DNA of 64,000 nt from Patescibacteria group bacterium (GCA_018970425.1 JAGWWK010000002.1:72068-136067); one strand, 5' to 3'. Counted from the stretch's first letter, positions 155-42,431 are shown. Notes: generated from the letters alone by a model not told the origin. A program made the numbers and translations.

Positions 155-1009
155 TCACACTCGACGAAACTCTTCAAGTACTTGTTCGTAAAGCTTCATG
201 GTGCGAAACGCCTCGCGTTGCGTAAGTATGAACTGCGATCCGCGCTCCACAACAAAATTATGGATGCGATGCGCCTCCCATGCCTGCGGGAGCGTAACAA
301 ACGCACCCTCAGGAACTGCACGGAGTTGCTCGCTAACAGTCGTTCCCGTATACCCGAGACCTGACAACACATCTCCAAGGAAAGTGTCCGCTGAGCGAAT
401 AGCTTCTTTCCACTGTTTCGGATCTTTGCTCATTGAAAGCGAAAGAAGTTCTTGCCAGCGACTCGCCACGGCCGTACGTGAGCGCGTGTGCGGTACAACG
501 GTGCGGTACTTGCGCCACTCTGTAATGCGTATGATGCAGAGAAGCACTGCGGCGCCAATAATCGCTAGCACGAACACTCCTGAAATAGCGTATGAAATAA
601 ATGAAAACGCACCCCACAACGCGCCGAGGAACCATGCAACTCCAAAAAAAGCTGAAACTACCGGTTGTGGGATAAATCCCGCGATTGCGCTGAAAAATTG
701 CGAGAGAATACTTACTGCACCACCCGCAGTCACTACCCCCTCAGCGCTCGCCGACCCAGCTTGAAACGGCCACAACCACGACCAGAATCCGCTACCCAGA
801 GCGCTCTGTGCCGCACTGACTCCCTCAGGGCTCACCGCTCCACCACCCGAAACTAGAGCGGAACCGCTCACGAGCGGTATACCAGCATCGGTGCACCCTC
901 CACCAATAAGCGAAATGAGCCAGCAGTACACATACTGCCAATTAATGAATGGCACGGGAGGCACAGTTTCGAGAGCCACCTCTGCGATTGCGGCAACGTT
1001 AAGGCTCAT
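155..1009 (-). CDS. hypothetical polytopic membrane protein with a ~110-aa C-terminal soluble domain
   Basis: 284-aa ORF whose 3' end overlaps the gatA stop by 4 nt (co-transcribed). Several hydrophobic segments followed by a charged C-terminal domain. No family recognised. Confidence 0.5.
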   Translation of the reverse strand: MSLNVAAIAEVALETVPPVPFINWQYVYCWLISLIGGGCTDAGIPLVSGSALVSGGGAVSPEGVSAAQSALGSGFWSWLWPFQAGSASAEGVVTAGGAVSILSQFFSAIAGFIPQPVVSAFFGVAWFLGALWGAFSFISYAISGVFVLAIIGAAVLLCIIRITEWRKYRTVVPHTRSRTAVASRWQELLSLSMSKDPKQWKEAIRSADTFLGDVLSGLGYTGTTVSEQLRAVPEGAFVTLPQAWEAHRIHNFVVERGSQFILTQREAFRTMKLYEQVLEEFRRV

Positions 1010-2761: not shown

Positions 2762-4771
<2,010 letters not shown>

Positions 4772-24960: not shown

Positions 24961-27108
24961 ATGGAGCCACAGTCCCCGATTGACGACCTTGTCCGCTTGT
25001 CTACTGCGCATCGCGCCGCGCTTGAGCGCCTTGGCATTGCAAATATCCGCGACCTCCTCTACCACATACCCCACCGCTACGAGTCGGCCGCTGATATACG
25101 TGAGGTCGCGCAACTCCACACACCGGGCGAGGTGACGCTATACGGGCAGTTCACCGCGCTTGAAATGAAACGCTCGTTCAAAACCAGAGTACCCATGGCC
25201 GAGGGAACTTTTGACGACGGCACGGGTACGGTGCGCGTTGTATGGTTTCATCAGCCATACCTTGCAAAAATGGTTCCCACGAACGAACTTGTGCGATTGC
25301 GTGGCCCGCTCTCGATTTCCAAGGGACGGAAGTACATTGCAAACCCGGTAGTCGAGCGCGCGGCTGGACTTCCGGTACTACAAGACACGGAGGGTATGGT
25401 GGCAGATGGTGGTATGCAGCCGGTGTACCCCGAGACCGCAGGCATTACCTCACTCTGGTTCTACCACGCGGTAAAGCGCGCACTCGAGGCGCGCGTCCAC
25501 GAATCGCTTGTAGACCTAGTGCCACGAGAGATTCTTGAGAAGTACCACCTACCCACGCTACAGACCGCGCTAGTCTGGGCACACCAACCCAAACATCAGA
25601 AAGACGCGGACGCCGCAAAGAAGCGTTTTGCGTTCGAGGAAGTGTTTATGATCCAACTCGCGCGCGCTCTCGAGCGTGAAAAAAATAAAGAAAAGCGCGC
25701 GCTCCCCGTTGATGCCGACGAAGCGCGGGTGCACGCATTTATTGACACCTTTCCCTTCGCACCAACGGGTGGGCAACGACGCGCGATTGCCGACATTCTT
25801 GCAAACTTCCTTGAGCCGTACCCTATGGCGCGCCTCCTCGAGGGCGACGTCGGCAGTGGCAAGACCGCGGTCGCCGCGGCGACCGCGTACGCAGTCGTGA
25901 CATCGCGTCCGGTGCCAGGAAAAAACTTTGGTAACCTGCAGGTCGCGTACATGTGCCCGACTGAAATACTCGCCAAGCAGCACTTCTCAACCTTTACGTC
26001 GTTTTTTAAAAAGTACCCTATACAAATCGGACTCATCACCTCGTCAGGCTGTTACAAGTTTCCGTCGAAGGTGCACCCCGATAAGCCGACTGAAATATCT
26101 CGCACACAGCTTTTAAAGTGGGTGGCTAATGGAGAGGTACCAATCCTCATTGGTACGCATGCTCTTATTCAAAAAGCGGTGAAGTTTAAGCACCTCGCAT
26201 ACGTCATTATCGACGAGCAACACCGCTTTGGTACCGCGCAGCGACAGGCCCTCACACTCAAAGACGGCGTGGCACCGCACCTCCTCTCCATGACCGCGAC
26301 CCCCATTCCGCGCACACTCGCCTTGACGCTCTACGGCGACCTCGACCTCACCGTACTCGACGAGCTCCCTGCTGGGCGTAAGCCTATAGATACGAAGATA
26401 GTGACACCACACGAGAGATCCGGCGCGTATACAAAAGTACGCGAACTCTTGGCTCAAGGTCGACAGGCGTACGTCATTTGTCCGCGTATCGACGAGCCGG
26501 ATCCGACAAAACAGATGGCACTCCAGGCGCGCTCGGTCGCAGCAGAATTAAAAAATCTGCACAAGCTGTTCCCCGAATTCGTGATCGAAAAAATGCACAG
26601 CAAGATGAGTCCGAAGGATAAGGAGGACGTCATGGCCGCGTTTGAACAAGGAAAGATACACATACTCGTCTCGACGTCGGTGGTCGAGGTGGGCGTCAAC
26701 GTCCCGAACGCGACGATTATTTTAATCGAAGGCGCAGAGCGCTTCGGCTTGGCCCAGCTCCACCAGCTACGCGGACGCGTGATGCGCTCGACGCACCAGC
26801 CGTATTGCTTCCTCATGGTAGACAAAGCGAGCTCCTTAGGGAACGCGCGGCTCAAGGCGATACTGAAAGCAAAAAACGGATTCGAGCTCGCTGAGCATGA
26901 CCTCGCGATACGCGGCGCGGGAGAACTCTATGGGCGCAGGCAGTGGGGCATCTCTGACATCGGTATGGAAGCCTTAAAAAATATAAAGCTTGTCGAGGCT
27001 GCTCGGAGCGAAGCATTCGCCCTCGTGTCTACAGACGCTGACCTACGCACCCTGCCCGACCTAAAAAAACAAGCCCTTCATACACTGAAGGACCTGCATT
27101 TTGAGTAG
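24961..27108 (+). CDS. recG: ATP-dependent DNA helicase RecG
   Basis: Wedge/OB N-domain, helicase motifs GDVGSGKT, DEQHRFG, MTATPIPRT, QLRGRVMRS. ORF opens at 24904, but the RecG-like N-terminus starts at the ATG at 24961. Confidence 0.9.
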   Translation: MEPQSPIDDLVRLSTAHRAALERLGIANIRDLLYHIPHRYESAADIREVAQLHTPGEVTLYGQFTALEMKRSFKTRVPMAEGTFDDGTGTVRVVWFHQPYLAKMVPTNELVRLRGPLSISKGRKYIANPVVERAAGLPVLQDTEGMVADGGMQPVYPETAGITSLWFYHAVKRALEARVHESLVDLVPREILEKYHLPTLQTALVWAHQPKHQKDADAAKKRFAFEEVFMIQLARALEREKNKEKRALPVDADEARVHAFIDTFPFAPTGGQRRAIADILANFLEPYPMARLLEGDVGSGKTAVAAATAYAVVTSRPVPGKNFGNLQVAYMCPTEILAKQHFSTFTSFFKKYPIQIGLITSSGCYKFPSKVHPDKPTEISRTQLLKWVANGEVPILIGTHALIQKAVKFKHLAYVIIDEQHRFGTAQRQALTLKDGVAPHLLSMTATPIPRTLALTLYGDLDLTVLDELPAGRKPIDTKIVTPHERSGAYTKVRELLAQGRQAYVICPRIDEPDPTKQMALQARSVAAELKNLHKLFPEFVIEKMHSKMSPKDKEDVMAAFEQGKIHILVSTSVVEVGVNVPNATIILIEGAERFGLAQLHQLRGRVMRSTHQPYCFLMVDKASSLGNARLKAILKAKNGFELAEHDLAIRGAGELYGRRQWGISDIGMEALKNIKLVEAARSEAFALVSTDADLRTLPDLKKQALHTLKDLHFE

Positions 27109-27182
27109 TGGGCGTGCCTGGACTCGAACCAGGGACCGCGGAGGTATAAGCTCCGTGCTCTAACCAACTGAGCTACACGCCC
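27109..27182 (-). tRNA. tRNA-Ile (anticodon TAT, reads AUA)
   Basis: Reverse complement GGGCGTG-TA-GCTC-AGTTGGTTA-GAGC-A-CGGAG-CTTATAC-CTCCG-CGGTC-CCTGG-TTCGAGT-CCAGG-CACGCCC-A. All four stems are canonical. Anticodon loop C-T-TAT-A-C. Confidence 0.8.
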
Positions 27183-30048: not shown

Positions 30049-30440
30049 CTTTTTATATTCGCCATTTTAGACGGTTGGTGCGGTACGGCATCGTCGGGAG
30101 TATTGCCTTTGCCATCGACATGGCACTCCTTGTAGCATTCGATTTCCTACTCGGACTCCCCTACCAAGCGGCCGTCCCCTCAGCTTTTCTCATAGCGACA
30201 TCTATTCACTATGTACTCGTGCACCGAGTTGCGTTCACAGACAGCGAACGACCAGCACATGAGGCATACCCATTCTTTCTCATCATTATGTGCGGAAGCG
30301 CAGCTGCAGTAACGGGGCTCGTATACGTGCTCGTTGAGTATGGCGGTCTGTCACTCTATGTCGCGCGAGTCGCGGTGTCTGGTATCGTGGGACTAGTTTC
30401 TTTTTACATGAATACGAAGTACAACTTTAGAATCGTATGA
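30045..30440 (+). CDS. GtrA-family membrane protein (tandem paralog)
   Basis: 131 aa, 4 TM, ends ...YMNTKYNFRIV. 4-nt overlap with smpB. Confidence 0.6.
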   Translation: MTFYIRHFRRLVRYGIVGSIAFAIDMALLVAFDFLLGLPYQAAVPSAFLIATSIHYVLVHRVAFTDSERPAHEAYPFFLIIMCGSAAAVTGLVYVLVEYGGLSLYVARVAVSGIVGLVSFYMNTKYNFRIV

Positions 30441-30883
30441 GCACAGATATCGTAAACAAAAAAGCGCGGCTCGAGTACGACATCCTGGATGAGTTTGAGG
30501 CAGGCATCGCGCTCGCCGGCTACGAGGCCAAGGCACTCCGCGCTGGCAAGGCCACGCTCGCGGGTGCGCGCGTCGTAGTGCGCGGCGGCGAGGCGTACCT
30601 CATAGGCGCCACTATCAGTCCGTACCAGGAGGGCAACGTACCCAAAAGCTACGACCCCGAGCGCGCGCGCAAGCTCCTCTTCTCCCGCTCAGAGCTTGCA
30701 GAGCTCGGAGGAGCAGAGACACAGCGAGGGTTGACAATAGTGCCTATAATGGTGTATAATAAAAAGCGCTTCATTAAGCTCCTGTGCGGCGTAGCGCGAA
30801 AGAAGAAAAAACATGACAAACGCGCTACACTCAAGGAGCGCGATGAGCGCAGGGACATCGAGCGTTCTTTGAAAAATCAATAA
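30437..30883 (+). CDS. smpB: SsrA-binding protein
   Basis: 148 aa, typical SmpB sequence with basic C-terminal tail. Immediately upstream of the tmRNA gene. Confidence 0.9.
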   Translation: MSTDIVNKKARLEYDILDEFEAGIALAGYEAKALRAGKATLAGARVVVRGGEAYLIGATISPYQEGNVPKSYDPERARKLLFSRSELAELGGAETQRGLTIVPIMVYNKKRFIKLLCGVARKKKKHDKRATLKERDERRDIERSLKNQ

Positions 30884-30922
30884 GGTCACTCGCGCGCAGC
30901 GCAGGCTCCTGCCCGCGCTGCG

Positions 30923-31294
30923 CGGGGGTGACCTGAATCGACAAAGAAATTACTTTCTTCTGTGCAACGTGGTGAATGTTGGAGAACACCTAAAATCTCG
31001 AACAACCAACAGTGTGAAAAACACTATGACCGCATCGTGGTTTACCCGTGCGGACTTTGCTTTCGCTCACGCCTAAGCAACATCATCTACACGACTCCTG
31101 ATAGTGTAGCTCTGGTGTCATATCATCAGGATTATCTGAAAGCCTGCCCGCCTTTCAGAAACATGTAGGGCTCGGTATGCAGTTATCTTGTTTGTTTCTT
31201 ACCTGCATGCTTAAACCTCGAAATAAACTATACGTTGTAGAATCGGTTTAAAGACCTTCTTTGGACGAGGGCTCATTACCCTCCACCTCCACCA
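30923..31294 (+). ncRNA. ssrA: tmRNA (ssrA), one-piece
   Basis: 5' GGGGGTGACCTGAATCGAC... and 3' ...GGACGAGGGCTCATTACCCTCCACCTCCACCA. Acceptor GGGGGTG/CACCTCC with the G3:U70 alanine identity pair, T-arm GAGGG-CTCATTA-CCCTC, encoded CCA. Candidate tag frame gca tcg tgg ttt acc cgt gcg gac ttt gct ttc gct cac gcc TAA (31031..31075), reading ...ADFAFAHA*. Resume codon uncertain. Confidence 0.8.
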
Positions 31295-31301
31295 ATAAAA
31301 A

Positions 31302-31324
31302 CTGCCGCAAGGCAGTCTTTTTAT
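31302..31324 (+). terminator. rho-independent terminator after ssrA
   Basis: CTGCC-GCAA-GGCAG plus TCTTTTTATT. The stem can extend to an ~18-bp inverted repeat (31289..31330) that includes the tmRNA 3' end. Confidence 0.7.
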
Positions 31325-31576
31325 TGGTGGGGTGAGCATGCAAACTGCTGAGACGTGGTTGTATCGAATCGTTTGACGAATCGAAACTAGAGGAGTATAG
31401 TCTCGAAGCTTTAAGAGCGTGCTTAATTGTGGACTAATTCGCTTGCCGCCTCTACGGCTCGCGAACACTACAACGTTCTAGGCGTAGCTAGCCGTCCACC
31501 CCTACACTCAATGTCCACAGCTCAAGAGCGTGAATACCAACTCATTCATTCAGAGGCGAATGCTGGTGAAAGTCAT

Positions 31577-31786
31577 ATGATTATTGGTACAATAATCGGC
31601 ATAATTGCTCTTGGTATTGTGCTTTCACACATACCCACCGAGGAAAACATGCTGGAATTCTTGCTACATACGCCCTATGGCCGGCTTGCTACTTTTTTGG
31701 GACTGCTGGGATTCGTTTTGGGAGTTCAAGGTTTCAGGAAACATTGGACGAACAGAGGTATACAAAGCGTACTAACGCGCCGCTAA
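31577..31786 (+). CDS. small 2-TM membrane protein (islet ORF 1)
   Basis: MIIGTIIGIIALGIVLSH...LLGFVLGVQGF. Preceded by GGTGAAAG upstream of the ATG. AT-richer codon usage than core genes. Confidence 0.35.
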   Translation: MIIGTIIGIIALGIVLSHIPTEENMLEFLLHTPYGRLATFLGLLGFVLGVQGFRKHWTNRGIQSVLTRR

Positions 31787-31791
31787 CTACT

Positions 31792-32094
31792 ATGTCGCGA
31801 ATTATGAATGAGGCGCGAGCATTGCGCGATGAAAGCTACGGGATTCAAAATGTAGCGGCTTCACTCGTGAAGTATGGTGTGGCTGGCGCTGGAGCATGGT
31901 GGGTTTTAGTGCGACTTATCGACCTAGGTGACGGTGATATAGACCCAGAGCATGCTGCTGTCGCTGAGACAGGAGCTTTCATAATCGCCATATTACCTCC
32001 CGTAGCATTTTTCTTGGCATATCTTGCTTATCGTGCTTCATCTTTGGTGTACAACAATAGAGCGAGAAAGCTCCCGAAGTCTTCTGGTCACTAA
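31792..32094 (+). CDS. small 2-TM membrane protein (islet ORF 2)
   Basis: MSRIMNEARALRDE...WWVLVRLIDLGDGDID...FIIAILPPVAFFLAYLAY. Starts 5 nt after ORF 1 stop. Confidence 0.35.
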   Translation: MSRIMNEARALRDESYGIQNVAASLVKYGVAGAGAWWVLVRLIDLGDGDIDPEHAAVAETGAFIIAILPPVAFFLAYLAYRASSLVYNNRARKLPKSSGH

Positions 32095-32178
32095 GCACAT
32101 ACCATACCGAGGATAGAAAATTTTAAGAAGCGATGGCGCGCTTCAAATGTGTACACTTCTGCGTACGTGCACAACTTG

Positions 32179-32207
32179 TTTGACAAAGATAGTAGTAGGA
32201 GTAAAAT
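32179..32207 (+). promoter_or_regulatory. sigma70-like promoter TTGACA-N17-TAAAAT
   Basis: Exact -35 consensus at 32179..32184 and a near-consensus -10 TAAAAT at 32202..32207. Sits ~125 nt upstream of the 518-aa ORF. Confidence 0.45.
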
Positions 32208-32331
32208 TTGCCCCGACCCATCTAGAGTAGAGGGAGGTGCGTCAAGTTATGTGACGTTGCAGAAGTTTGATCTTTCTTTTGCAGGGACTGCAAGGTAAAG
32301 ATCAGGTTTTTGCACCTCCTACCGACTCCCC

Positions 32332-33888
32332 ATGGGCCATTATTCGGCCTTTTTTTCATTTATGCAGCACGTACGCGTAGCCTCACCGGCTCAAGAACGT
32401 ATGTCCCATGACCTTTCTTCCCTCTTCGAGGCTGTGTATGCTGAGCGGCCGATACTGCGCACACTTATCGCCCAGCACGGTACGCGTACCCTTCATGAGT
32501 ACGCATCTCAGTATGTGGCTGATACTGGATACCCTGCCGCACGTCGCGACGAAATCATTGGAGTTATAGCACGAGAAACTGAGCGACTGTTCGGCACTGA
32601 ACTCTCACGCACCATTTCTGAACAACTCAACAGAGAGTACATCGTCAATACTGCAGACCACGTTGGTCCAGTGACACACTCGTGGTTTGTAAGTACAAGC
32701 GCGCTTATTGGCGCCACACTCTCTCAGGGCTCTCGCGCCATCATCACTCTTGCATGCAGTAACGTGTCTCTTAACAACACCTCGTTCCCGCGAGGTGTTC
32801 TCTTTCACACTCAGAAAGGTTCTGAGATACGCGAACAGCGACTTTCGTTCCTTCCCAGCGACTCGCACGCCGCATCCGTGTACGGGTTTCGAGCATACAC
32901 ACGCGATGAAATACACAAGATACACAAGCTGCTCCGCGAGAAAGTACGCGCGCGTGACGTACCACAATCAGTTGCAGACAAGCTCGTGACACTCATAGAT
33001 ACCGTCTACGGCACCGAGTCGGCACTCTCGCAGGCATCATTCGCTGACCAAGTATCCACGACTAATCGCACACTGTGGCAGCACATGTTCTCGAACGAAC
33101 AGGTACCCGAGCTCGTGTACCTTGAGCAAGAGCGGATCGTGATCGACGCACTCACACGATTCCACCTCACAGGCAGGTCAGTGGTATCAAAGATTCTTTT
33201 TAACCCAGAGTACACGGCACTCGCAGCATCACACTTTGATGGAGTCCCGAGCGCGTACGTACTTTCTGAAAAAAAAGGCACCTTCCTTTTCTGGGGAGCA
33301 TCAAAAGATACTAGTTACCGCGTATCACTGTGGTACAAAGATGGCGCCCTCGAGTCATCTGACGGTACGGTGCGCATACCACTTACTCCTGAGTCGATCA
33401 CGCGTGCACTCAATGATAAGCGTATTGTCCCGTCACTCTTACTTACATTTATCCTGCTTTCGTTCCATTACGGACTAAACTGTCTCGGAGGCTTCAATCA
33501 AATACACTATGTAACTGCAATGAAGGCAGCATACCTGTCCTTCCTTTCAGCGCGCGGCGAGACCGACGAATACACCCTCGCCACACGTGCAGTCACGGAT
33601 AACACCAACGATGTAACGCTCGGGTACGTGCGCGATGGAGCCGCGCTTATTCCTGCCGACGGGCTCGACTTCTACCTGTACGGCACAGGCACTGCATGGG
33701 CGCACCTGGTATCTGACGTGCACACACTTACATTACGAGATGCATTTTTCCCCGGCATGCCAGCGTTCTACCGATGCACACGACCAGCATCGCAACTTAA
33801 CCCAACACTCAGCACTATCACACCTGCACATATTACCGAGTACTTTGGCGTCGATAAGAAATTGACTCCGACCGTATCACTCTCATAA
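32332..33888 (+). CDS. hypothetical protein (518 aa), islet operon gene 1
   Basis: Long ORF with AT-richer third positions. No recognisable motif. Possible alternative start at 32401 (MSHDLSSL). Confidence 0.55.
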   Translation: MGHYSAFFSFMQHVRVASPAQERMSHDLSSLFEAVYAERPILRTLIAQHGTRTLHEYASQYVADTGYPAARRDEIIGVIARETERLFGTELSRTISEQLNREYIVNTADHVGPVTHSWFVSTSALIGATLSQGSRAIITLACSNVSLNNTSFPRGVLFHTQKGSEIREQRLSFLPSDSHAASVYGFRAYTRDEIHKIHKLLREKVRARDVPQSVADKLVTLIDTVYGTESALSQASFADQVSTTNRTLWQHMFSNEQVPELVYLEQERIVIDALTRFHLTGRSVVSKILFNPEYTALAASHFDGVPSAYVLSEKKGTFLFWGASKDTSYRVSLWYKDGALESSDGTVRIPLTPESITRALNDKRIVPSLLLTFILLSFHYGLNCLGGFNQIHYVTAMKAAYLSFLSARGETDEYTLATRAVTDNTNDVTLGYVRDGAALIPADGLDFYLYGTGTAWAHLVSDVHTLTLRDAFFPGMPAFYRCTRPASQLNPTLSTITPAHITEYFGVDKKLTPTVSLS

Positions 33889-33892
33889 GACC

Positions 33893-34894
33893 ATGCGCTC
33901 ATCACGAAATTTTGGTCCAAAACGCGTTATTGTGCACGACGCACATATTCGAGAAAATGCTCAGAAGATTGCTGCGTACCTTGCTCAGCACAACTGCACA
34001 ATGGCGATCTCGACAAAATCGCTTCCTCTTGAGCAGGGGTTACTCTCTATCTTTACGGAGAAGTACCCAGCGTACGATCTCCGTGCTGATAACCTAGCTG
34101 TACTCACTCAAGCTGGCCATCCCACTATTTCAAATCTCCACCTGCGAGGAGAGTCACACAGCATCATGCTGACAGATGACGATGACATAGCGTATGCACC
34201 TACCGGAGTGCAGGGCTACTACCTATTCTTTGATTTTGGCGACCGGCGCGAAGGATTTGTGCCTGAAGACGTTACACGTGTTGCAGACGCACTTCGTGGA
34301 CGCGGGATCACATCAGTAGTACTTGCAAGCAACATTGGCTGCCTCTCAGACGTACCCCCAACTGACGAGTACTTTGCAGACTTCCTTACGCTCCGGGATG
34401 CATTCAGTGCACGCGGCATAACAGTAACAAAGTTTTCAGTCGGGGGATCGAACTGCATCCCACTCATCCACACGTTTGCGAGCCCTGTACCTACCGAAAT
34501 ACGCGCTGGTGAAGCGATACTGTTTGGTACGTATGCAAATGTAGATTCTGACCTACTCGCACTGAACAAAGAAAATCTGTTCCTTGAGGCATGGACACTT
34601 CGAACACTCGGGCAAGATGAAATCATGTTCGACTTTGGATACACCCATGCTGAACAGCACGAACTCCTGCCTTCTGCCTGCAAGATCGTGCGCCAGTCAG
34701 CAAACCACAGCGCACTCGCGCTTCCCGCAGCAACGGCACCTGAAAGGATTTTACTCCCCCTCCACTATCGAGGCCTTACGAAGCTTAGTCAGCAGCGCAA
34801 CGTGGCATTTGTGCGCACGTCTCAGTCTGAGTGCAACGCTCAGAGCACCGCACGATCCGCTACTCAGTTACCCGTTCAACAAGCTGCCACGTAA
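33893..34894 (+). CDS. hypothetical protein (333 aa), weak resemblance to fold-type III PLP (alanine-racemase-like) enzymes
   Basis: 4-nt gap after gene 1. N-terminal MAISTKSLP could be a PLP-Lys motif. Gly-rich VGGSN later. Assignment is a guess. Confidence 0.45.
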   Translation: MRSSRNFGPKRVIVHDAHIRENAQKIAAYLAQHNCTMAISTKSLPLEQGLLSIFTEKYPAYDLRADNLAVLTQAGHPTISNLHLRGESHSIMLTDDDDIAYAPTGVQGYYLFFDFGDRREGFVPEDVTRVADALRGRGITSVVLASNIGCLSDVPPTDEYFADFLTLRDAFSARGITVTKFSVGGSNCIPLIHTFASPVPTEIRAGEAILFGTYANVDSDLLALNKENLFLEAWTLRTLGQDEIMFDFGYTHAEQHELLPSACKIVRQSANHSALALPAATAPERILLPLHYRGLTKLSQQRNVAFVRTSQSECNAQSTARSATQLPVQQAAT

Positions 34895-34916
34895 CGTATT
34901 GCTTCGTTAAAACACT

Positions 34917-35894
34917 ATGGTAAAAAAAGAAGGCATGAATCACGATGAATCTGAGGAGTCAGATGCTGATACGCAGAACGCCAACGCGTTGACGCATGAA
35001 ACCACCGCGCCACTGGTGAGCACGGAACGCGAAACAGAAAATACCGCGCATGCGGGCAACGCACACGAAAGTGGCTCTGAGCGTGATCCGGAGCGTCGGT
35101 ACCAGGAAAACCTTGAGACGCTCAAGAAGGTTGAGGAAGCAGACGGAATGACCGCGTACGCGAAGGAGCGAGTAACTGAAGAGTCGTTCTATGGTAACGA
35201 AGACCTCACCGTGTATTGCTCCGATGAGCGTACGGAAGGATTTGGCCCGCGCGACCTGGGTGGCCCCCTCTTTGCACTCTTTATCCTAAAGGTTGACCGC
35301 AAGCAACTCGCGGCCGCGTACTGGGCTCAGGGTGTCCGCACACTCACCTCCCACCATGAGTGCGGCGCCGCGAAGGCGGCGTACAAAGCTGCGCACCCGG
35401 GTAGCGACCCCACCTGGGATGAAGTGAACGAGTTTGCCAAGCGAGAAACAGAAATGTTTGCACGCGAGTTTGCGGAGTACCAATTTGGGTATGAGCATAT
35501 TGACGCCGCTCATATGGCAACGGACGGCCACTTCCACCCCGGAGTCTGCATCTACCTCGACGATGTTGGCGGCTTTAGTTGGCGACAGACAGACGGCATG
35601 CCTCAGGGATACAAGGTCTCGAGTACAGTCAGTAAAGACCCGGTCGCCGGAGTTGTGGCGCTTCTTGACCTCGTTGCCTTTGCTCAGGGGAATGCTGGCA
35701 CTCGGATGCAAAAAGATGGCATCTCATTTCCTATTTATATAGTTGCCGCAACTCGCGAGGCGTTCGACGCTCGCTGTGCTGAGCTCCGCACCGCCATTCA
35801 GGGCAAGCCCTACGAGGCGAGCATTGTGTTTGAGATGATTGAGAAGCCTGAGAGCGTACCAGTACGCGAACACGCGAAAGACCTACTCAAATGA
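34917..35894 (+). CDS. hypothetical protein (325 aa) with acidic disordered N-terminus
   Basis: N-terminal ~90 aa D/E/T-rich low-complexity, then a globular region with a SHHECGAAKAAY motif. No family recognised. Confidence 0.5.
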   Translation: MVKKEGMNHDESEESDADTQNANALTHETTAPLVSTERETENTAHAGNAHESGSERDPERRYQENLETLKKVEEADGMTAYAKERVTEESFYGNEDLTVYCSDERTEGFGPRDLGGPLFALFILKVDRKQLAAAYWAQGVRTLTSHHECGAAKAAYKAAHPGSDPTWDEVNEFAKRETEMFAREFAEYQFGYEHIDAAHMATDGHFHPGVCIYLDDVGGFSWRQTDGMPQGYKVSSTVSKDPVAGVVALLDLVAFAQGNAGTRMQKDGISFPIYIVAATREAFDARCAELRTAIQGKPYEASIVFEMIEKPESVPVREHAKDLLK

Positions 35895-35923
35895 GAGACG
35901 AGGTGCTATAGTAGCGAATACCC

Positions 35924-36445
35924 GTGCCCACCCCACGCATCCTCATCAACTCGCAAATCCGCGCGCCTGAACTCAGGGTTATTGGCGCGCAGGGTGAAAA
36001 CCTCGGCGTTATATCGCTCGCAGACGCACTGAAGGCAGCTCGCGAGGCAGGACTCGACCTCATTGAGGTAAGTCCGGCCGCCGTTCCTCCGGTTGCTAAA
36101 ATCATGGATTATGGTAAATTTCAATACGAGCAGCAGAAGAAAGAGCGCGAGGCACGGGCGAAATCCCACTCCACTGAAACCAAGTCCATACAGGTGACGG
36201 TTACTGAAGGAGAGAACGACCTGACCCGCAAGGCTCGCGCTGCTGCAGAGTGGCTCCGTGAGGGCCACCGGGTGAAGGTCGAGCTCACCCTACGGGGCCG
36301 GTATAAATACATGGACCCTAAGTTTCTGAATGAACGGCTCGAACGCTTTGTAAAACTCGTTCCGGAGGACTACAAGGTCGCTGAAGCGCCGCAGCGAGGG
36401 CCCCGAGGCATCTCTACGGTCCTTGAAAAGTCCGGAAAGAAATAA
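35924..36445 (+). CDS. infC: translation initiation factor IF-3
   Basis: 173 aa, IF3 N- and C-domains. ORF track starts at GTG 35924. An in-frame ATA at 35918 is an alternative, since IF3 genes typically use rare AUU/AUA starts. Confidence 0.85.
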   Translation: MPTPRILINSQIRAPELRVIGAQGENLGVISLADALKAAREAGLDLIEVSPAAVPPVAKIMDYGKFQYEQQKKEREARAKSHSTETKSIQVTVTEGENDLTRKARAAAEWLREGHRVKVELTLRGRYKYMDPKFLNERLERFVKLVPEDYKVAEAPQRGPRGISTVLEKSGKK

Positions 36446-36446
36446 T

Positions 36447-36632
36447 ATGAAAACCAACAAATCCTACACGAAGCGGCTCCGCGTGACGAAGCGTGGCAAG
36501 ATTATCGGACGCAAAGCCGGCCAGAACCACTTTAACGCCAAGGAGAGCTCTAAGACCAAGGGCAAGAAGGGTCGCGCATTCCACATTGAAATGACCGCGC
36601 AGGACCGAGCCCGCTTTCTTCCCCACAGCTAA
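36447..36632 (+). CDS. rpmI: 50S ribosomal protein L35
   Basis: MKTNKSYTKRLRVTKRGKI..., classic L35. Starts 2 nt after the infC stop. Confidence 0.85.
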   Translation: MKTNKSYTKRLRVTKRGKIIGRKAGQNHFNAKESSKTKGKKGRAFHIEMTAQDRARFLPHS

Positions 36633-36659
36633 GCTTACTAAGATTTTGACAACACCCAT

Positions 36660-37007
36660 ATGGCACGCACCAAAGGAGGACCAAAGCAGCTCAAGCGCCG
36701 AAAAAATATTCTTGCACAGACCAAGGGCTATCGCCATGGACGCAAGTCCAAGAAGCGCGCAGCGCTTGAGGCGATCAAGCACGCAGGTGCCTACGCCTTT
36801 AAGCACCGACGCGCTAAGAAGCGCGAGATGCGCGGACTCCACATCATCCGCTTGAACGCGGCGCTCCGCGAGAACGGCTTTAAGAACTACTCAACGTTCA
36901 TCGGACTCCTCAAGAAGAAGAATGTGATGCTCGACCGCAAGGTGCTCTCTGAGATTGCGATGAAACACCCCGAGTCCTTCAAGCGCTTCCTCGCTAAACT
37001 CTCCTAA
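36660..37007 (+). CDS. rplT: 50S ribosomal protein L20
   Basis: MARTKGGPKQLKRRKNILAQTKGY..., classic L20. Confidence 0.9.
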   Translation: MARTKGGPKQLKRRKNILAQTKGYRHGRKSKKRAALEAIKHAGAYAFKHRRAKKREMRGLHIIRLNAALRENGFKNYSTFIGLLKKKNVMLDRKVLSEIAMKHPESFKRFLAKLS

Positions 37008-37019
37008 TCTGAAACAATA

Positions 37020-37050
37020 TAAAACCGTCCCGCTCATCGGGACGGTTTTT
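37020..37050. terminator. bidirectional rho-independent terminator between rplT and the convergent RNase gene
   Basis: AAAA-CCGTCCCG-CTCAT-CGGGACGG-TTTTTA. A-run on one side and T-run on the other. Confidence 0.75.
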
Positions 37051-39566: not shown

Positions 39567-42431
39567 CTACAGCTGCTTTTTTAGCTGCGCATACTTCTCT
39601 CTGATCTCGTCCTCAACGGCAGCGCGCGGTCTTCCGAAGCGCTGGAACGACAATTGCTTCAGTGTCTCTATATTAACTGCATCACCAGATACATATGGCA
39701 GTGCGTCAAGCGTAAATGGAGGGAGCGGTGAGTTGTTTGCGAGGAGGCGCACATACGCACTAAAGTTCGGAATTTTCAGCACATCGGTGGGTGAAAATAT
39801 GGGAGTTAACTGCTTTGAAAGAAACTCGGCGTCATCGGGTCCCACGCGAAACACGGCCATAGAGCCGACATTTCCGAACACTGCGTCGCGGATGCGCGGG
39901 TACAGTTGTCCTAAAAATTGGTGCGCCATCGTAAGCGAGAGACCGAACTTTCTTGCCTCGGCAAGGATAGTTGATATTGAGTCGGTCGAAATGTTTTGGA
40001 ACTCGTCGAGATAGAGGTAAAACGGCGGCGGTTTTTTACTCGGATCGCGCGCAAGCGCGGTCATAAGAAACTTGCCTACGATGATGAGACCGATAAGGTT
40101 TGCGTTTTGATCGCCGAGGCGACCCTTCGACAGGTTTACCAAGAAAATTTTCTTGCTGTCCATTATGTCTTTGAAGTTGAACGAGCTTCGCTGCTGCCCT
40201 ACGATCGGTCGCATGATCTCATTCGCAATAAAGATGTCGAACTTTGAGGTAATGTACGGCACAATGTTTTTAAGCGACCCCTCGCCGGAGACGCGCTCTG
40301 CAATATCTTCCCAGAAATGGGATACCACTTCGTTCTTACAGCGCGAGAGCTTGAGGCGACGGTAACTCTCATCAGAAAGCACGCGTGCAATGTCCATGAG
40401 CGTCGAGCCGGTGTCTGGATCCTCGACCACGAGGAGTGCTGCGTTTCTAAAGTACTGCTCGAAAATCGGACCAAATGCCTCGGGCACTTGCCCGTAGAGC
40501 TTTTGAAATATCTTGAAAAGCTCGTCTACAACGAACGTTTTTTGCTCTGGAAAGCGCGGATCGTACTCGAGCATGTTGAGTCCCATCGGCCGGTCGGTAA
40601 ATGCTGGATCAAAGTAGATCACATCGTCGTACCGCTCTTTTGGAATGCGCGAGAGAATGTCAATTACATCCGCACCATGCGGGTCAACAAAGCAGACACC
40701 CTCGCCATTTTCGATATCTTGAATGATGAGGTTTTTGAGAAAATTGGTTTTACCGGTACCGGTCTGACCTATCACATAGAGGTGACGCAGTCGATCGTTC
40801 GGCGTCATGCGTATATCTACTGTCACGCCTGCATGAGTATTTCTGCCAAGAAGTACTCCTGATGTCGGGACACCAAGAGGCGCAGGTGCGTACTTGCCGC
40901 CAGCGGTTTTAGCCTCGCGGCTCGTAGTACCACCGGCAATCGCGAGATGGAACACGGTTGCGAGCTCTTGAAGGTTCATAGGCATACAGGGACTTGCATA
41001 CAGGAGCGGAGAGCGTATCTTCTCAAAGAACTCATTGTACAAAGCGCCCCAAAAGGACTCGATGGGTCCGGGATCAAACGTGCGGAAAATAAACGATCGG
41101 AGGAGCGCATGCTCATCGCGAGCGGTTTTCGGAAAGCGGACTTTAAAGCGATTGCCCTGTATGTCCTCGAACTGGTTTAGAACGAGCTCGAACTCATGCA
41201 TCAGCGCGTCGGCTCGCTGCGCGGTGCGTGCCGACACCACAAAACGCATATTGACGCCCGATATGACGCTCCGCATTTTTTTCTCTATCTGGTTTACCTG
41301 AATAGCATCTGCCTCGTAGTCTTTTTCTTTTTTCTCTTTGGAAGAGAAAATATCCATGACAGTGCTCAAGAATTTGGGCGCATGTTTCCGCATAAAGGAA
41401 AGACGTCCGAGCAGTCGGTGTTTCCGGTACACCTCCGCGCCCGACATCTTGCCGGACCGTAGGTCATCGAGCACTGACTTAAACCGTTTAGTCCAATACT
41501 CCCCCGCTGACGCGACGGAAAACTGGAGCGCCGCACCCTCACCCTCTTTTGACATCCGCGACATGACCGCGAGGAGCTGGTTGAGCGGATCATTCACGAA
41601 CTGATCGGCCGTTCGTATAGGAAGGCACATTGGCCGATACAGCGTTAGGTACGCAATACGCGTCACCCCGAATTGATTGAAAGGGTTGTAATCTTTTTTG
41701 AGTTCGTGCACGTGCGCATCATGGAAGTGCGCATGTATCTGCTTTTCAAACAGCTCCCGACGCTTCCGAGGCACCGCAACATAGAACACTGCATCCTCTT
41801 CTGCTGAAGAGACGGCGAGTTCCATAGTAAAGTGGTCTTTGTGAATGGCGCGGCGCTTCCTCCAGTCCTTGAAAAAAATCATATCGGGGAGCCCGGCAAA
41901 CGGAATGACTGCCTGGTAGAGGAGCTCCATCTGCGTCACGATGTCCGTCAGTGACCCGCCATGATTCCCACTCATCTCTGGCACCGTCACCTCAAGTACC
42001 GTAAAGTCGAGCGCACGGCCTATGTCGCTTTTCGGGTCAAGACCGGGTATAGACGTACCCTCAGCACGCATCGAGGTGAGGAGATTGTGGAAATCGTCTT
42101 CTAGGTGCGGATTTTTAATTCGATCAAGTTCGCGAAGCGCGGCCGGAAGACCTCGCTCGTTTAAAATGGAGAGGAGCTCCTCCATATCTTTGTCATTGGC
42201 CTCAGGGGTGAGTTGTACTTTGAACTCGGGCTTTCTCTCGATGGGTTGCGTGGGGATCATTGGCCCCTCCACAGGCATGTCGAGTATGTCATCGTGAGAC
42301 TGAGAAGCCCCGCGTCTGCCGCCGCCGTACCCGCCGCTTCGCGTATCTTCTTTCTGCTTATTCAAATTCTGCTCTGGGGAGAGATTTTTTTCAGGCGGCG
42401 CGTCGAAACTTGGAACCCCTGGGTTCACCAT
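39567..42431 (-). CDS. large soluble VirD4/TraG/TrwB-like (type IV coupling protein family) P-loop ATPase with a ~500-aa N-terminal domain of unknown function
   Basis: 954 aa. Walker A GQTGTGKT, Walker B YLYLDEFQNI, a TMAHQFLGQL motif typical of T4CP/HerA-FtsK-like ATPases. No N-terminal TM helices. Confidence 0.65.
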   Translation of the reverse strand: MVNPGVPSFDAPPEKNLSPEQNLNKQKEDTRSGGYGGGRRGASQSHDDILDMPVEGPMIPTQPIERKPEFKVQLTPEANDKDMEELLSILNERGLPAALRELDRIKNPHLEDDFHNLLTSMRAEGTSIPGLDPKSDIGRALDFTVLEVTVPEMSGNHGGSLTDIVTQMELLYQAVIPFAGLPDMIFFKDWRKRRAIHKDHFTMELAVSSAEEDAVFYVAVPRKRRELFEKQIHAHFHDAHVHELKKDYNPFNQFGVTRIAYLTLYRPMCLPIRTADQFVNDPLNQLLAVMSRMSKEGEGAALQFSVASAGEYWTKRFKSVLDDLRSGKMSGAEVYRKHRLLGRLSFMRKHAPKFLSTVMDIFSSKEKKEKDYEADAIQVNQIEKKMRSVISGVNMRFVVSARTAQRADALMHEFELVLNQFEDIQGNRFKVRFPKTARDEHALLRSFIFRTFDPGPIESFWGALYNEFFEKIRSPLLYASPCMPMNLQELATVFHLAIAGGTTSREAKTAGGKYAPAPLGVPTSGVLLGRNTHAGVTVDIRMTPNDRLRHLYVIGQTGTGKTNFLKNLIIQDIENGEGVCFVDPHGADVIDILSRIPKERYDDVIYFDPAFTDRPMGLNMLEYDPRFPEQKTFVVDELFKIFQKLYGQVPEAFGPIFEQYFRNAALLVVEDPDTGSTLMDIARVLSDESYRRLKLSRCKNEVVSHFWEDIAERVSGEGSLKNIVPYITSKFDIFIANEIMRPIVGQQRSSFNFKDIMDSKKIFLVNLSKGRLGDQNANLIGLIIVGKFLMTALARDPSKKPPPFYLYLDEFQNISTDSISTILAEARKFGLSLTMAHQFLGQLYPRIRDAVFGNVGSMAVFRVGPDDAEFLSKQLTPIFSPTDVLKIPNFSAYVRLLANNSPLPPFTLDALPYVSGDAVNIETLKQLSFQRFGRPRAAVEDEIREKYAQLKKQL

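Follow-up and report, generated by a model that had tools for sequence, protein, structure and literature searches.

The ssrA-infC interval of a Patescibacteria group bacterium: a mosaic locus with a putative racemase-ligase cassette behind a candidate regulatory leader RNA

The DNA considered here is a 64,000-nucleotide stretch from a Patescibacteria group bacterium (GCA_018970425.1 JAGWWK010000002.1:72068-136067), hereafter called the window, and in particular its 4.6-kb segment at 31330-35900, lying between ssrA, the gene of the transfer-messenger RNA (tmRNA), and infC. An earlier reading of the sequence, referred to below as the first-pass annotation, had presented this segment as an AT-rich, possibly acquired islet with a promoter-driven operon of three genes that could be placed in no family. 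Three open reading frames (ORFs) of 518, 333 and 325 amino acids, spaced by 4 and 22 nt, are indeed found there and are designated P1, P2 and P3; for P2 and P3, NCBI lists identical protein sequences under the label ‘Patescibacteria group bacterium’. The segment is, however, a mosaic of three modules and not an island. As shown by the gene orders of relatives, P1 and P2 form a two-gene cassette occupying a slot just behind a structured leader RNA, a slot that in three relatives holds a small membrane ORF. In addition, all three proteins can now be given confident fold assignments.

The reading preferred here, which as a whole is given slightly better than an even chance of being right, combines this mosaic organization with a long operon, a D-amino-acid cassette (P1-P2), the association of P3 with infC and a regulatory role of the leader. 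A sigma-70-type promoter at 32180 and the conserved 124-nt leader would drive P1-P2-P3-infC-rpmI-rplT. P2 would convert an L-amino acid to its D-form in a reaction dependent on pyridoxal 5'-phosphate (PLP), of the ornithine-racemase type, and P1 would activate an amino acid with ATP and ligate it to an amine acceptor, contributing to a small D-amino-acid-containing peptide or to a cell-envelope component. P3 would be a separate, lineage-conserved zinc enzyme resembling beta-carbonic anhydrases and belonging with infC. The functional statements made on the locus are drawn from fold and genomic context.

Gene content between ssrA and infC

Related loci, designated by L-numbers, were obtained by exact-protein look-ups, and the content of the ssrA-infC interval was found to differ in each of seven of them. 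At L005 the order is ftsH-gtrA-gtrA-smpB-ssrA-leader-P1-P2, after which the contig ends, whereas at L012 the leader, P1 and P2 are followed by a gene for a SulP-family transporter (2815..4515) and by infC, within which the contig stops. Three other loci (L009, L094 and L011) present smpB and ssrA and, further downstream, the leader, a small membrane ORF of 71-74 amino acids and P3-infC-rpmI-rplT, without P1-P2. The latter pair is also missing from L010, in which a CitMHS transporter gene on the opposite strand precedes P3-infC, while L095, with P3-infC and almost no upstream DNA, is uninformative in this respect. Overall, P1-P2 is present in three of the seven judgeable loci (window, L005 and L012), meaning that the trio is not conserved at this position in all relatives. 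P3 stands immediately 5' of infC in five relatives, four of which (L009, L010, L011 and L094) lack P1-P2; L012 is the exception among the relatives examined, since it carries P1-P2 and has the SulP transporter exactly where P3 would be. These gene orders indicate that P3 goes with infC and that P1-P2 alternates with the small ORF behind the leader, and the initial idea of the three genes as one travelling unit was rejected.

The distribution of P1-P2 is also discordant with the similarity of the neighbouring proteins. By SmpB, the closest relative of the window is L005 (85% identity) and the most distant is L011. Homologues of the two tandem small ORFs that follow ssrA in the window, s1 and s2, were detected only in L011 (42% and 39% identity, respectively) and in none of the six other related loci searched. 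The first 61 residues of the L012 IF3 are 95% identical to those of L009 and 74% identical to those of the window, although L012 is of the P1-P2 type. This suggests that the leader-P1-P2 module has been exchanged among relatives, with the proviso that the sequences are short and that the IF3 comparison concerns a 61-residue fragment.

As to composition, the proposed AT-rich islet holds up to the end of P2 and not beyond. The mean GC content of the window is 0.539. The stub 3' of ssrA (31330..32179, + strand), which carries s1 (31577..31786) and s2 (31792..32094), both predicted membrane ORFs on the + strand present as first described, has a GC content of 0.473, within the lowest 1.3% of equal-sized (850-bp) windows. 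From the promoter to the end of P2 (32180-34894) the value is 0.515, within the lowest 9.6% of windows of that size, whereas P3 (0.558) and the stretch from P3 through rplT (0.555) are core-like. GC at third codon positions follows the same trend (s1 0.44, s2 0.42, P1 0.53, P2 0.49, P3 0.60, infC 0.62 and rplT 0.72, against a window mean of 0.57 with a standard deviation of 0.06). AT-richness is therefore real in the stub, mild in P1-P2 and absent in P3.

It could be expected from its position that the whole of 31330-35900 is a classic genomic island, integrated at the 3' end of the tmRNA gene and since deprived of its integrase and attachment (att) sites. ssrA is a known integration hot spot, up to 34894 the AT content of the segment exceeds that of the remaining window, and the content of the interval is patchy among relatives. 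Moreover, in L005 the 3' end of ssrA recurs 183 bp further on as a 21-nt direct repeat (20/21 identical; 3590..3610 and 3773..3793) resembling the att-like trace of an earlier integration. These repeats, however, enclose only the 183 bp, upstream of the promoter, and leave P1-P2 outside. In the window itself, in agreement with the first-pass annotation, no integrase-like ORF or Pfam match was found in 31330-35900, nor does the 3' end of ssrA recur within 30900..36000; elsewhere in the window it has a single weak match (13/16 bases, 3701..3716). In its composition P3 is like the core genes, and five relatives keep it in synteny with infC; the promoter and leader, first taken as the trio's own, are kept in relatives without P1-P2, where they head small-ORF-P3-infC operons, and so are not specific to the cassette. 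An island spanning the whole segment is thus considered improbable. What stands of the acquired insertion is the variable interval, the L005 repeat and the discordant distribution of P1-P2, which support the view of the ssrA-infC interval as a variable spot in this lineage; the marks of an island are missing from the window and P3 does not share the unusual composition. A defence system is not indicated either, the PADLOC models of anti-phage defence having returned nothing for any of the five ORFs.

P1, P2 and their genomic partners

P1 is placed at 32362..33888 (+). The 518-residue ORF begins at 32332, but the ATG at 32362 is favoured as the start because an alignment of the upstream DNA of relatives brings their start codons together there (position 272 is the start called in L012); the first 14 residues of the longer version are poorly modelled. 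P1 gave no match in Pfam, NCBIfam (E<=1), PADLOC or the sequences of the PDB, and a Pfam scan over 55 members of its family revealed no consistent family. Its AlphaFold2 model, built on a 55-sequence alignment, is of high quality (pLDDT 93.3, pTM 0.92) and contains a class-I-synthetase-like Rossmann core as in PDB 4wbd. Searched with Foldseek, it retrieved BshC (E 4.4e-6) and LysRS (probability 0.82-0.87). The model thus points, confidently as regards the fold, to an enzyme derived from class-I aminoacyl-tRNA synthetases and structurally closest to BshC. T107, H110 and G112 are invariant in the family and D109 is nearly so (consensus TADHHGP), and in the model this T-x-D-H-x-G stretch comes after the first core strand and before a helix, where the HIGH motif would sit. 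Further invariant residues are R154, Q240, N245, H278, W321, Q390, Y393 and D446.

A profile search of 1.84 billion representatives gave 1377 clusters at E<=1e-3 and 695 at E<=1e-30, that is, a family of about 1,400 clusters (50% identity), of which no description was found in the literature. The related loci, gathered with a 15-sequence alignment, come from 143 species-level genomes; the 79 loci listed are candidate-phyla-radiation assemblies, as are all the labelled family members seen. About 20 of the P1 assemblies (L016, L017, L020, L032 and others) bear the title ‘uncultured Gammaproteobacteria’; in these assemblies P1 groups with its counterparts from Peribacteria and Peregrinibacteria, which makes the label probably wrong.

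The major clue for the function of P1 comes from its neighbours, which were analysed in 84 loci. An enzyme of a D-amino-acid-forming type lies within two genes of P1 in 21 of them: a class IV aminotransferase, a family that includes D-amino-acid transaminase, in ten; a racemase of the DapF fold, similar to CntK (a histidine racemase), in six; a P2 protein, resembling Orr, in three; and an amino-acid racemase of the Asp/Glu-racemase type (160 bits, above the cut-off) in two. ATP-grasp ligases adjoin P1 in 11 of the 84 (seven cyanophycin-synthetase-like and four RimK-like), and most partners are encoded on the same strand, immediately downstream. At L078, for instance, P1 forms a trio with a CntK-like racemase and an ATP-grasp ligase. 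In nine loci there are two or three full-length P1 paralogues in tandem; those of L016, L017, L048, L052, L057, L058 and L060 are 31-41% identical to the P1 of the window and in some cases followed by a class IV aminotransferase. Such arrays recall the successive ligases of a stepwise pathway. Fusion proteins (P-numbers with four digits denote individual proteins) join P1 to a CntK-like racemase (P0011) or to ATP-grasp domains of two kinds, cyanophycin synthetase- or LdmS-like (P0047, P0050, P0053, P0126, P0162 and P0184). In a neighbour-joining ordering, the P1 of the window groups with other partnered P1s. The presence of four unrelated D-amino-acid-forming enzyme types beside P1 argues that P1 would consume a D-amino acid, and the ATP-grasp fusions, together with the paralogue arrays, argue for stepwise peptide assembly.

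Pairs of this sort are known, as in the aspartate racemase and D-aspartate ligase of Enterococcus faecium or in Alr and Ddl, in which the racemase gene adjoins that of an ATP-dependent ligase using its D-product, as proposed for P1-P2. The ligases of the known pairs are, however, of the ATP-grasp or Mur type, whereas P1 has the class-I synthetase/BshC fold and ATP-grasp enzymes appear as its additional partners.

In view of its nearest fold, P1 might instead be an analogue of BshC or MshC that adds cysteine to complete a low-molecular-weight thiol, the racemases being unrelated or supplying a modified building block. The fusions with ATP-grasp domains, similar to that of the bifunctional glutathione synthetase GshAB, recall thiol-peptide synthesis. 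The resemblance to BshC is nevertheless distant: P1 and YllA (PDB 4wbd) share about 8-11% identity with a TM-score of only 0.43, the P1 profile did not reach 4wbd at E<=10 and none of the 55 family members matched a BshC sequence model. The partners of BshC are BshA and BshB, while those of P1 are racemases and ATP-grasp ligases; no BshA/BshB-like (glycosyltransferase or deacetylase) types occur among the annotated recurrent neighbour clusters of the 84 loci, some clusters being unannotated. Furthermore, the recurrent racemases and transaminases are unneeded for bacillithiol or mycothiol synthesis, and the thiol alternative is regarded as very unlikely.

A second alternative is that P1 acts on or with tRNA, either charging it with an unusual or D-amino acid or using aminoacyl-tRNA in the manner of cyclodipeptide synthases, with P2 in a supplying or editing role. 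P2 does resemble ornithine racemase, whose substrate is a basic amino acid, and precedents for class-I synthetase-like ligases acting outside the ribosome are reviewed by Aravind et al. (2010, PMC2922099). Like these non-ribosomal ligases (MshC, MetRS paralogues and cyclodipeptide synthases), P1 would be derived from class-I synthetases; unlike them, it shows no evident canonical HIGH and KMSKS motifs, and in the part of that paper available to us its family is apparently not described. No link of MshC, MetRS paralogues or cyclodipeptide synthases to D-amino-acid-forming enzymes was found in the literature. No anticodon-binding domain was recognised in P1 by any sequence model (Pfam and NCBIfam; 55 members), BshC, which is not known to bind tRNA, fits P1 much better than any synthetase does, and the fusions with ATP-grasp and racemase domains suggest chemistry on free amino acids. 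A role on tRNA is accordingly rated as very unlikely.

P2 (33893..34894, +) had been weakly likened to fold-type III PLP enzymes, an intuition that proved correct. Residues 110-210 match PF01168 with 31 bits, above the cut-off of 24.1 (E 2.6e-7), a family also precomputed for the proteins P0075-P0078, and the protein hits the NCBIfam model Orr (E 1.5e-8), although at 34.1 bits, far below the 480-bit cut-off. In an alignment with the Orr-like P0078 (about 26% identity), T41 and K42 are invariant and the motifs FDxGDxREG and ExRxGEA align, while the C-terminal part of P2 has a deletion of about 25 residues; K42 is presumably the N-terminal PLP-binding lysine of the fold-type III family. PDB sequence searches, by single sequence and by profile, returned nothing for P2. 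These features suggest a divergent fold-type III PLP enzyme, putatively an amino-acid racemase of the Orr/YhfX type. NCBI annotates P2 as ‘alanine racemase’, and it could be argued that it simply serves peptidoglycan synthesis as a housekeeping enzyme, P1 being unrelated and the adjacency an accident of a compact genome, much as in Peribacteria, where P1 either has only housekeeping genes around it or is convergent with the gene of a penicillin-binding protein. Such an accident would hardly account for four non-homologous racemase or transaminase types immediately 3' of P1 across lineages, nor for a P1-racemase fusion protein. Besides, P2 scores far under the curated racemase cut-offs, and its close homologues, only two among 5.8 billion proteins, both lie beside P1 (L012 and L005). 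The housekeeping explanation is hence given little weight, and the pairing of a racemase with a D-amino-acid ligase is preferred.

The leader RNA and the predicted operon

The promoter in front of the leader is nearly consensus, as first noted, with 11 of 12 matches (TTGACA-16-TAAAAT, sigma-70-type, 32180..32207, +), its spacer being of 16 nt and not 17. In the upstream-DNA alignment, the TTGAC and -10 elements line up with their counterparts in L012 and L005. The RNA that follows (32215..32338, +) has a fold of -53.1 kcal/mol (z = -5.3), equalled by none of 200 shuffles, and includes the long-range complementary pair seen at the outset (GGGAGGTGC, 32232..32240, with GCACCTCC, 32312..32319). 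Its architecture comprises an outer helix, an internal loop AGA / UACCG, a G-C helix GGGRGGUGC / GCACCYCC and a long hairpin. A covariance model (R1) built from three leaders matched six loci (window, L005, L012, L011, L009 and L094), solely in the ssrA-infC interval, and the six leaders adopt one common architecture, their z values ranging from -4 to -6.9. An alignment of five of them has 91.9% of its cells compatible with pairing, against 40-50% in controls with slid partners. The covariation analysis proposed for the leader was equally favourable: in the five-sequence alignment, both sides change in a compensatory manner at 18 of 46 pairs and none of 500 shuffles reaches the observed covariation. 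The near invariance of the G-C helix (GGGGGUGC/GCACCCCU) and of the AGA/UACCG loop suggests a specific binding site.

No strong terminator on the + strand separates the leader from position 37021, the scan having picked up, within P1, just two weak hairpins of 5 bp whose T-tails are poor, and no terminator-like site at all from 33647 to 37020. For this reason the transcription unit, first described as a three-gene operon, is predicted to comprise six genes, P1-P2-P3-infC-rpmI-rplT, with gaps of 4, 22, 29, 1 and 27 nt, and thus to end in housekeeping translation genes. The last three (infC, 35924..36445; rpmI, 36447..36632; rplT, 36660..37007; all +) were identified from their ORFs and translations and from the Pfam labels IF3, L35 and L20 in syntenic relatives. 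A strong palindromic terminator with a 12-bp stem (37021..37049, no strand assigned) probably closes both the operon and a convergent gene.

Several functions can be considered for the leader. That of a P1-specific riboswitch was dropped, since R1 found nothing upstream of about 80 other P1 homologues. A conserved transcription attenuator was also rejected: the terminator-like hairpin of the window (GGGCC-AUUAUUC-GGCCU and then U7; 32334..32357, +) competes with the outer helix of the leader, the two folds being nearly isoenergetic, but it is convincing only there and no comparable hairpin with a U-run was seen in the leader folds of relatives. By contrast, infC lies downstream in all five leader loci that reach far enough (window, L012, L011, L009 and L094, the L005 contig ending earlier) and rpmI-rplT was seen downstream in four (window, L009, L011 and L094), which favours an autoregulatory leader, in all likelihood one that binds a protein and controls the entire operon in cis.

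The nearest analogy is the L20-controlled infC leader of Bacillus and other Firmicutes (Choonee et al. 2007, PMC1865079). Like L20_leader of Rfam, the present element is a structured 5' leader heading an operon with infC-rpmI-rplT and, in the window, its terminator-like hairpin competes with a leader helix. It differs in lacking any covariance-model similarity to Rfam families (only microRNA-hairpin noise at E<=10), in having three additional genes before infC and in that the terminator is not conserved in relatives. With the H40/H41 region of E. coli 23S rRNA, where L20 binds, the leader has only the hexamer AGAGGG in common, the host's own 23S gene being outside the window. Its invariant 5' strand GUAGAGGGGGGU (window 32227..32238; L012 138..149) matches E. 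coli 16S 661..672, which we take to be helix 22, at all 12 positions, and the invariant loop UACCG would resemble the UACCGG of helix 23a; this match is marginal, with a score of 24 against a shuffle maximum of 27. A 16-22-nt match to E. coli 23S 1569-1590 also has a marginal score, so that local alignment yielded nothing beyond marginal rRNA matches, neither of them at the L20 site. The proteins that bind the 16S 661..672 region are not encoded by this operon. A scan of metagenome contigs with the leader pattern gave one chance match, in eukaryote-like DNA with no ORF >=80 amino acids.

Several considerations weigh against the reading preferred here. Only a quarter of the P1 loci have a neighbour of the D-amino-acid type, the largest Peribacteria clade of P1 stands alone, and the scores of the class IV aminotransferases slightly favour branched-chain over D-amino-acid transaminases. 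No obvious canonical HIGH or KMSKS motif was recognised in P1, and P2 is very divergent and could carry out another PLP chemistry. The leader set consists of only six sequences, three of them close, in an alignment fitted to the model, and the predicted co-transcription with infC is based only on the gaps being short and strong terminators lacking. Finally, a BshC-like fold would not by itself dictate the chemistry of P1, since BshC is a putative cysteine-adding enzyme of bacillithiol synthesis whose reaction, according to a 2018 review (PMC5790435), had not been reconstituted in vitro.

P3, the flanking genes and the meaning of the locus

P3 (34917..35894, +) is, with a confident fold, modelled as a divergent beta-carbonic-anhydrase-like zinc protein. 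Its model (pLDDT 86.2) adopts the beta-carbonic anhydrase fold and contains the zinc site Cys-x-Asp-x-Arg ... His-x-x-Cys, the motif that defines the beta class, with C101, D103, R105, H146 and C149 invariant in 10 of 10 family members. The SHHECG motif and the acidic disordered N-terminus pointed out by the first-pass annotation were both verified: the former is invariant in the family, and about 53 residues are disordered in the model. The N-terminal extension (about 50 residues, 34917..35075) is found in the window only and is absent from all nine homologues, and translation may in fact begin later, V34 being one candidate. P3 was matched by no Pfam or NCBIfam model, and hence by no carbonic-anhydrase model; the P3 profile gave weak matches to carbonic anhydrases among PDB sequences (E 0.25-2.2) over the zinc-motif region. 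Compared with beta-class carbonic anhydrases, including the two-lobed Porphyridium (1ddz) and carboxysomal CsoSCA (8thm) enzymes and the zeta-class CDCA1, P3 differs in this lack of a family-model match, in its tiny family (10 clusters found) and in its fixed place 5' of infC, and its activity is a prediction from the model. As the SulP family includes bicarbonate carriers, the replacement of P3 by a SulP transporter in L012 may be a bicarbonate-related functional substitution, a hint only.

Upstream of the segment, smpB (30437..30883) precedes ssrA (30924..31294, +), which was missed by ARAGORN and recovered as a full-length match to Rfam RF00023 (80.6 bits, E 1.1e-29), so that it may be an unusual tmRNA variant of the phylum. 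A sigma-70-type promoter with 12 of 12 consensus matches (TTGACA-18-TATAAT, 30731..30760, +), inside the 3' end of smpB and about 165 nt 5' of ssrA, is probably the ssrA promoter. An intrinsic terminator (31301..31325, +), made of the hairpin ACTGCCGCAAGGCAGT (31301..31316) and a T-run, follows the gene. Further upstream, at 27108..27182 (-), the window has a tRNA-Ile with anticodon UAU (gene ‘tat’); in most bacteria AUA is read by a modified CAU anticodon. Downstream of rplT, genes for a DUF8128 protein of about 950 residues, a nucleoside diphosphate kinase and a beta-CASP metallo-beta-lactamase nuclease are conserved in relatives. The window presents candidate counterparts, ORFs that agree with these genes in size and order, that at 39567..42431 corresponding to the DUF8128-protein genes of L009 (12740..15592) and L010 (12512..15376). 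This conserved gene order indicates stability of the regions on the flanks of the variable interval.

A broader proposal, possible but more tentative than the reading of the locus itself, is that the P1 family as a whole consists of ATP-dependent ligases, nearest to BshC, which use D-amino acids supplied by interchangeable racemases or transaminases and which, with ATP-grasp ligases and paralogues, would make a small peptide containing D-amino acids or modify the envelope; the leader, considered apart from P1, would be a new RNA by which infC-rpmI-rplT is autoregulated in this lineage. For the calling of genomic islands, the locus illustrates that adjacency to ssrA and low GC content are insufficient, as what is found here is a swappable cassette within a housekeeping operon. 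The leader is a new candidate for an RNA acting in cis on genes of translation factors and ribosomal proteins, a kind of regulator of which, to our knowledge, almost no case is known in this phylum. Candidate-phyla-radiation bacteria have tiny genomes and most of their conserved unknown proteins are unexplained. In P1, a large unnamed family for which there is no Pfam or NCBIfam model gains a confident fold and a specific proposal, D-amino-acid ligation, and since it is related to BshC and has informative partners, it may hint at the kind of substrate that this fold accepts.

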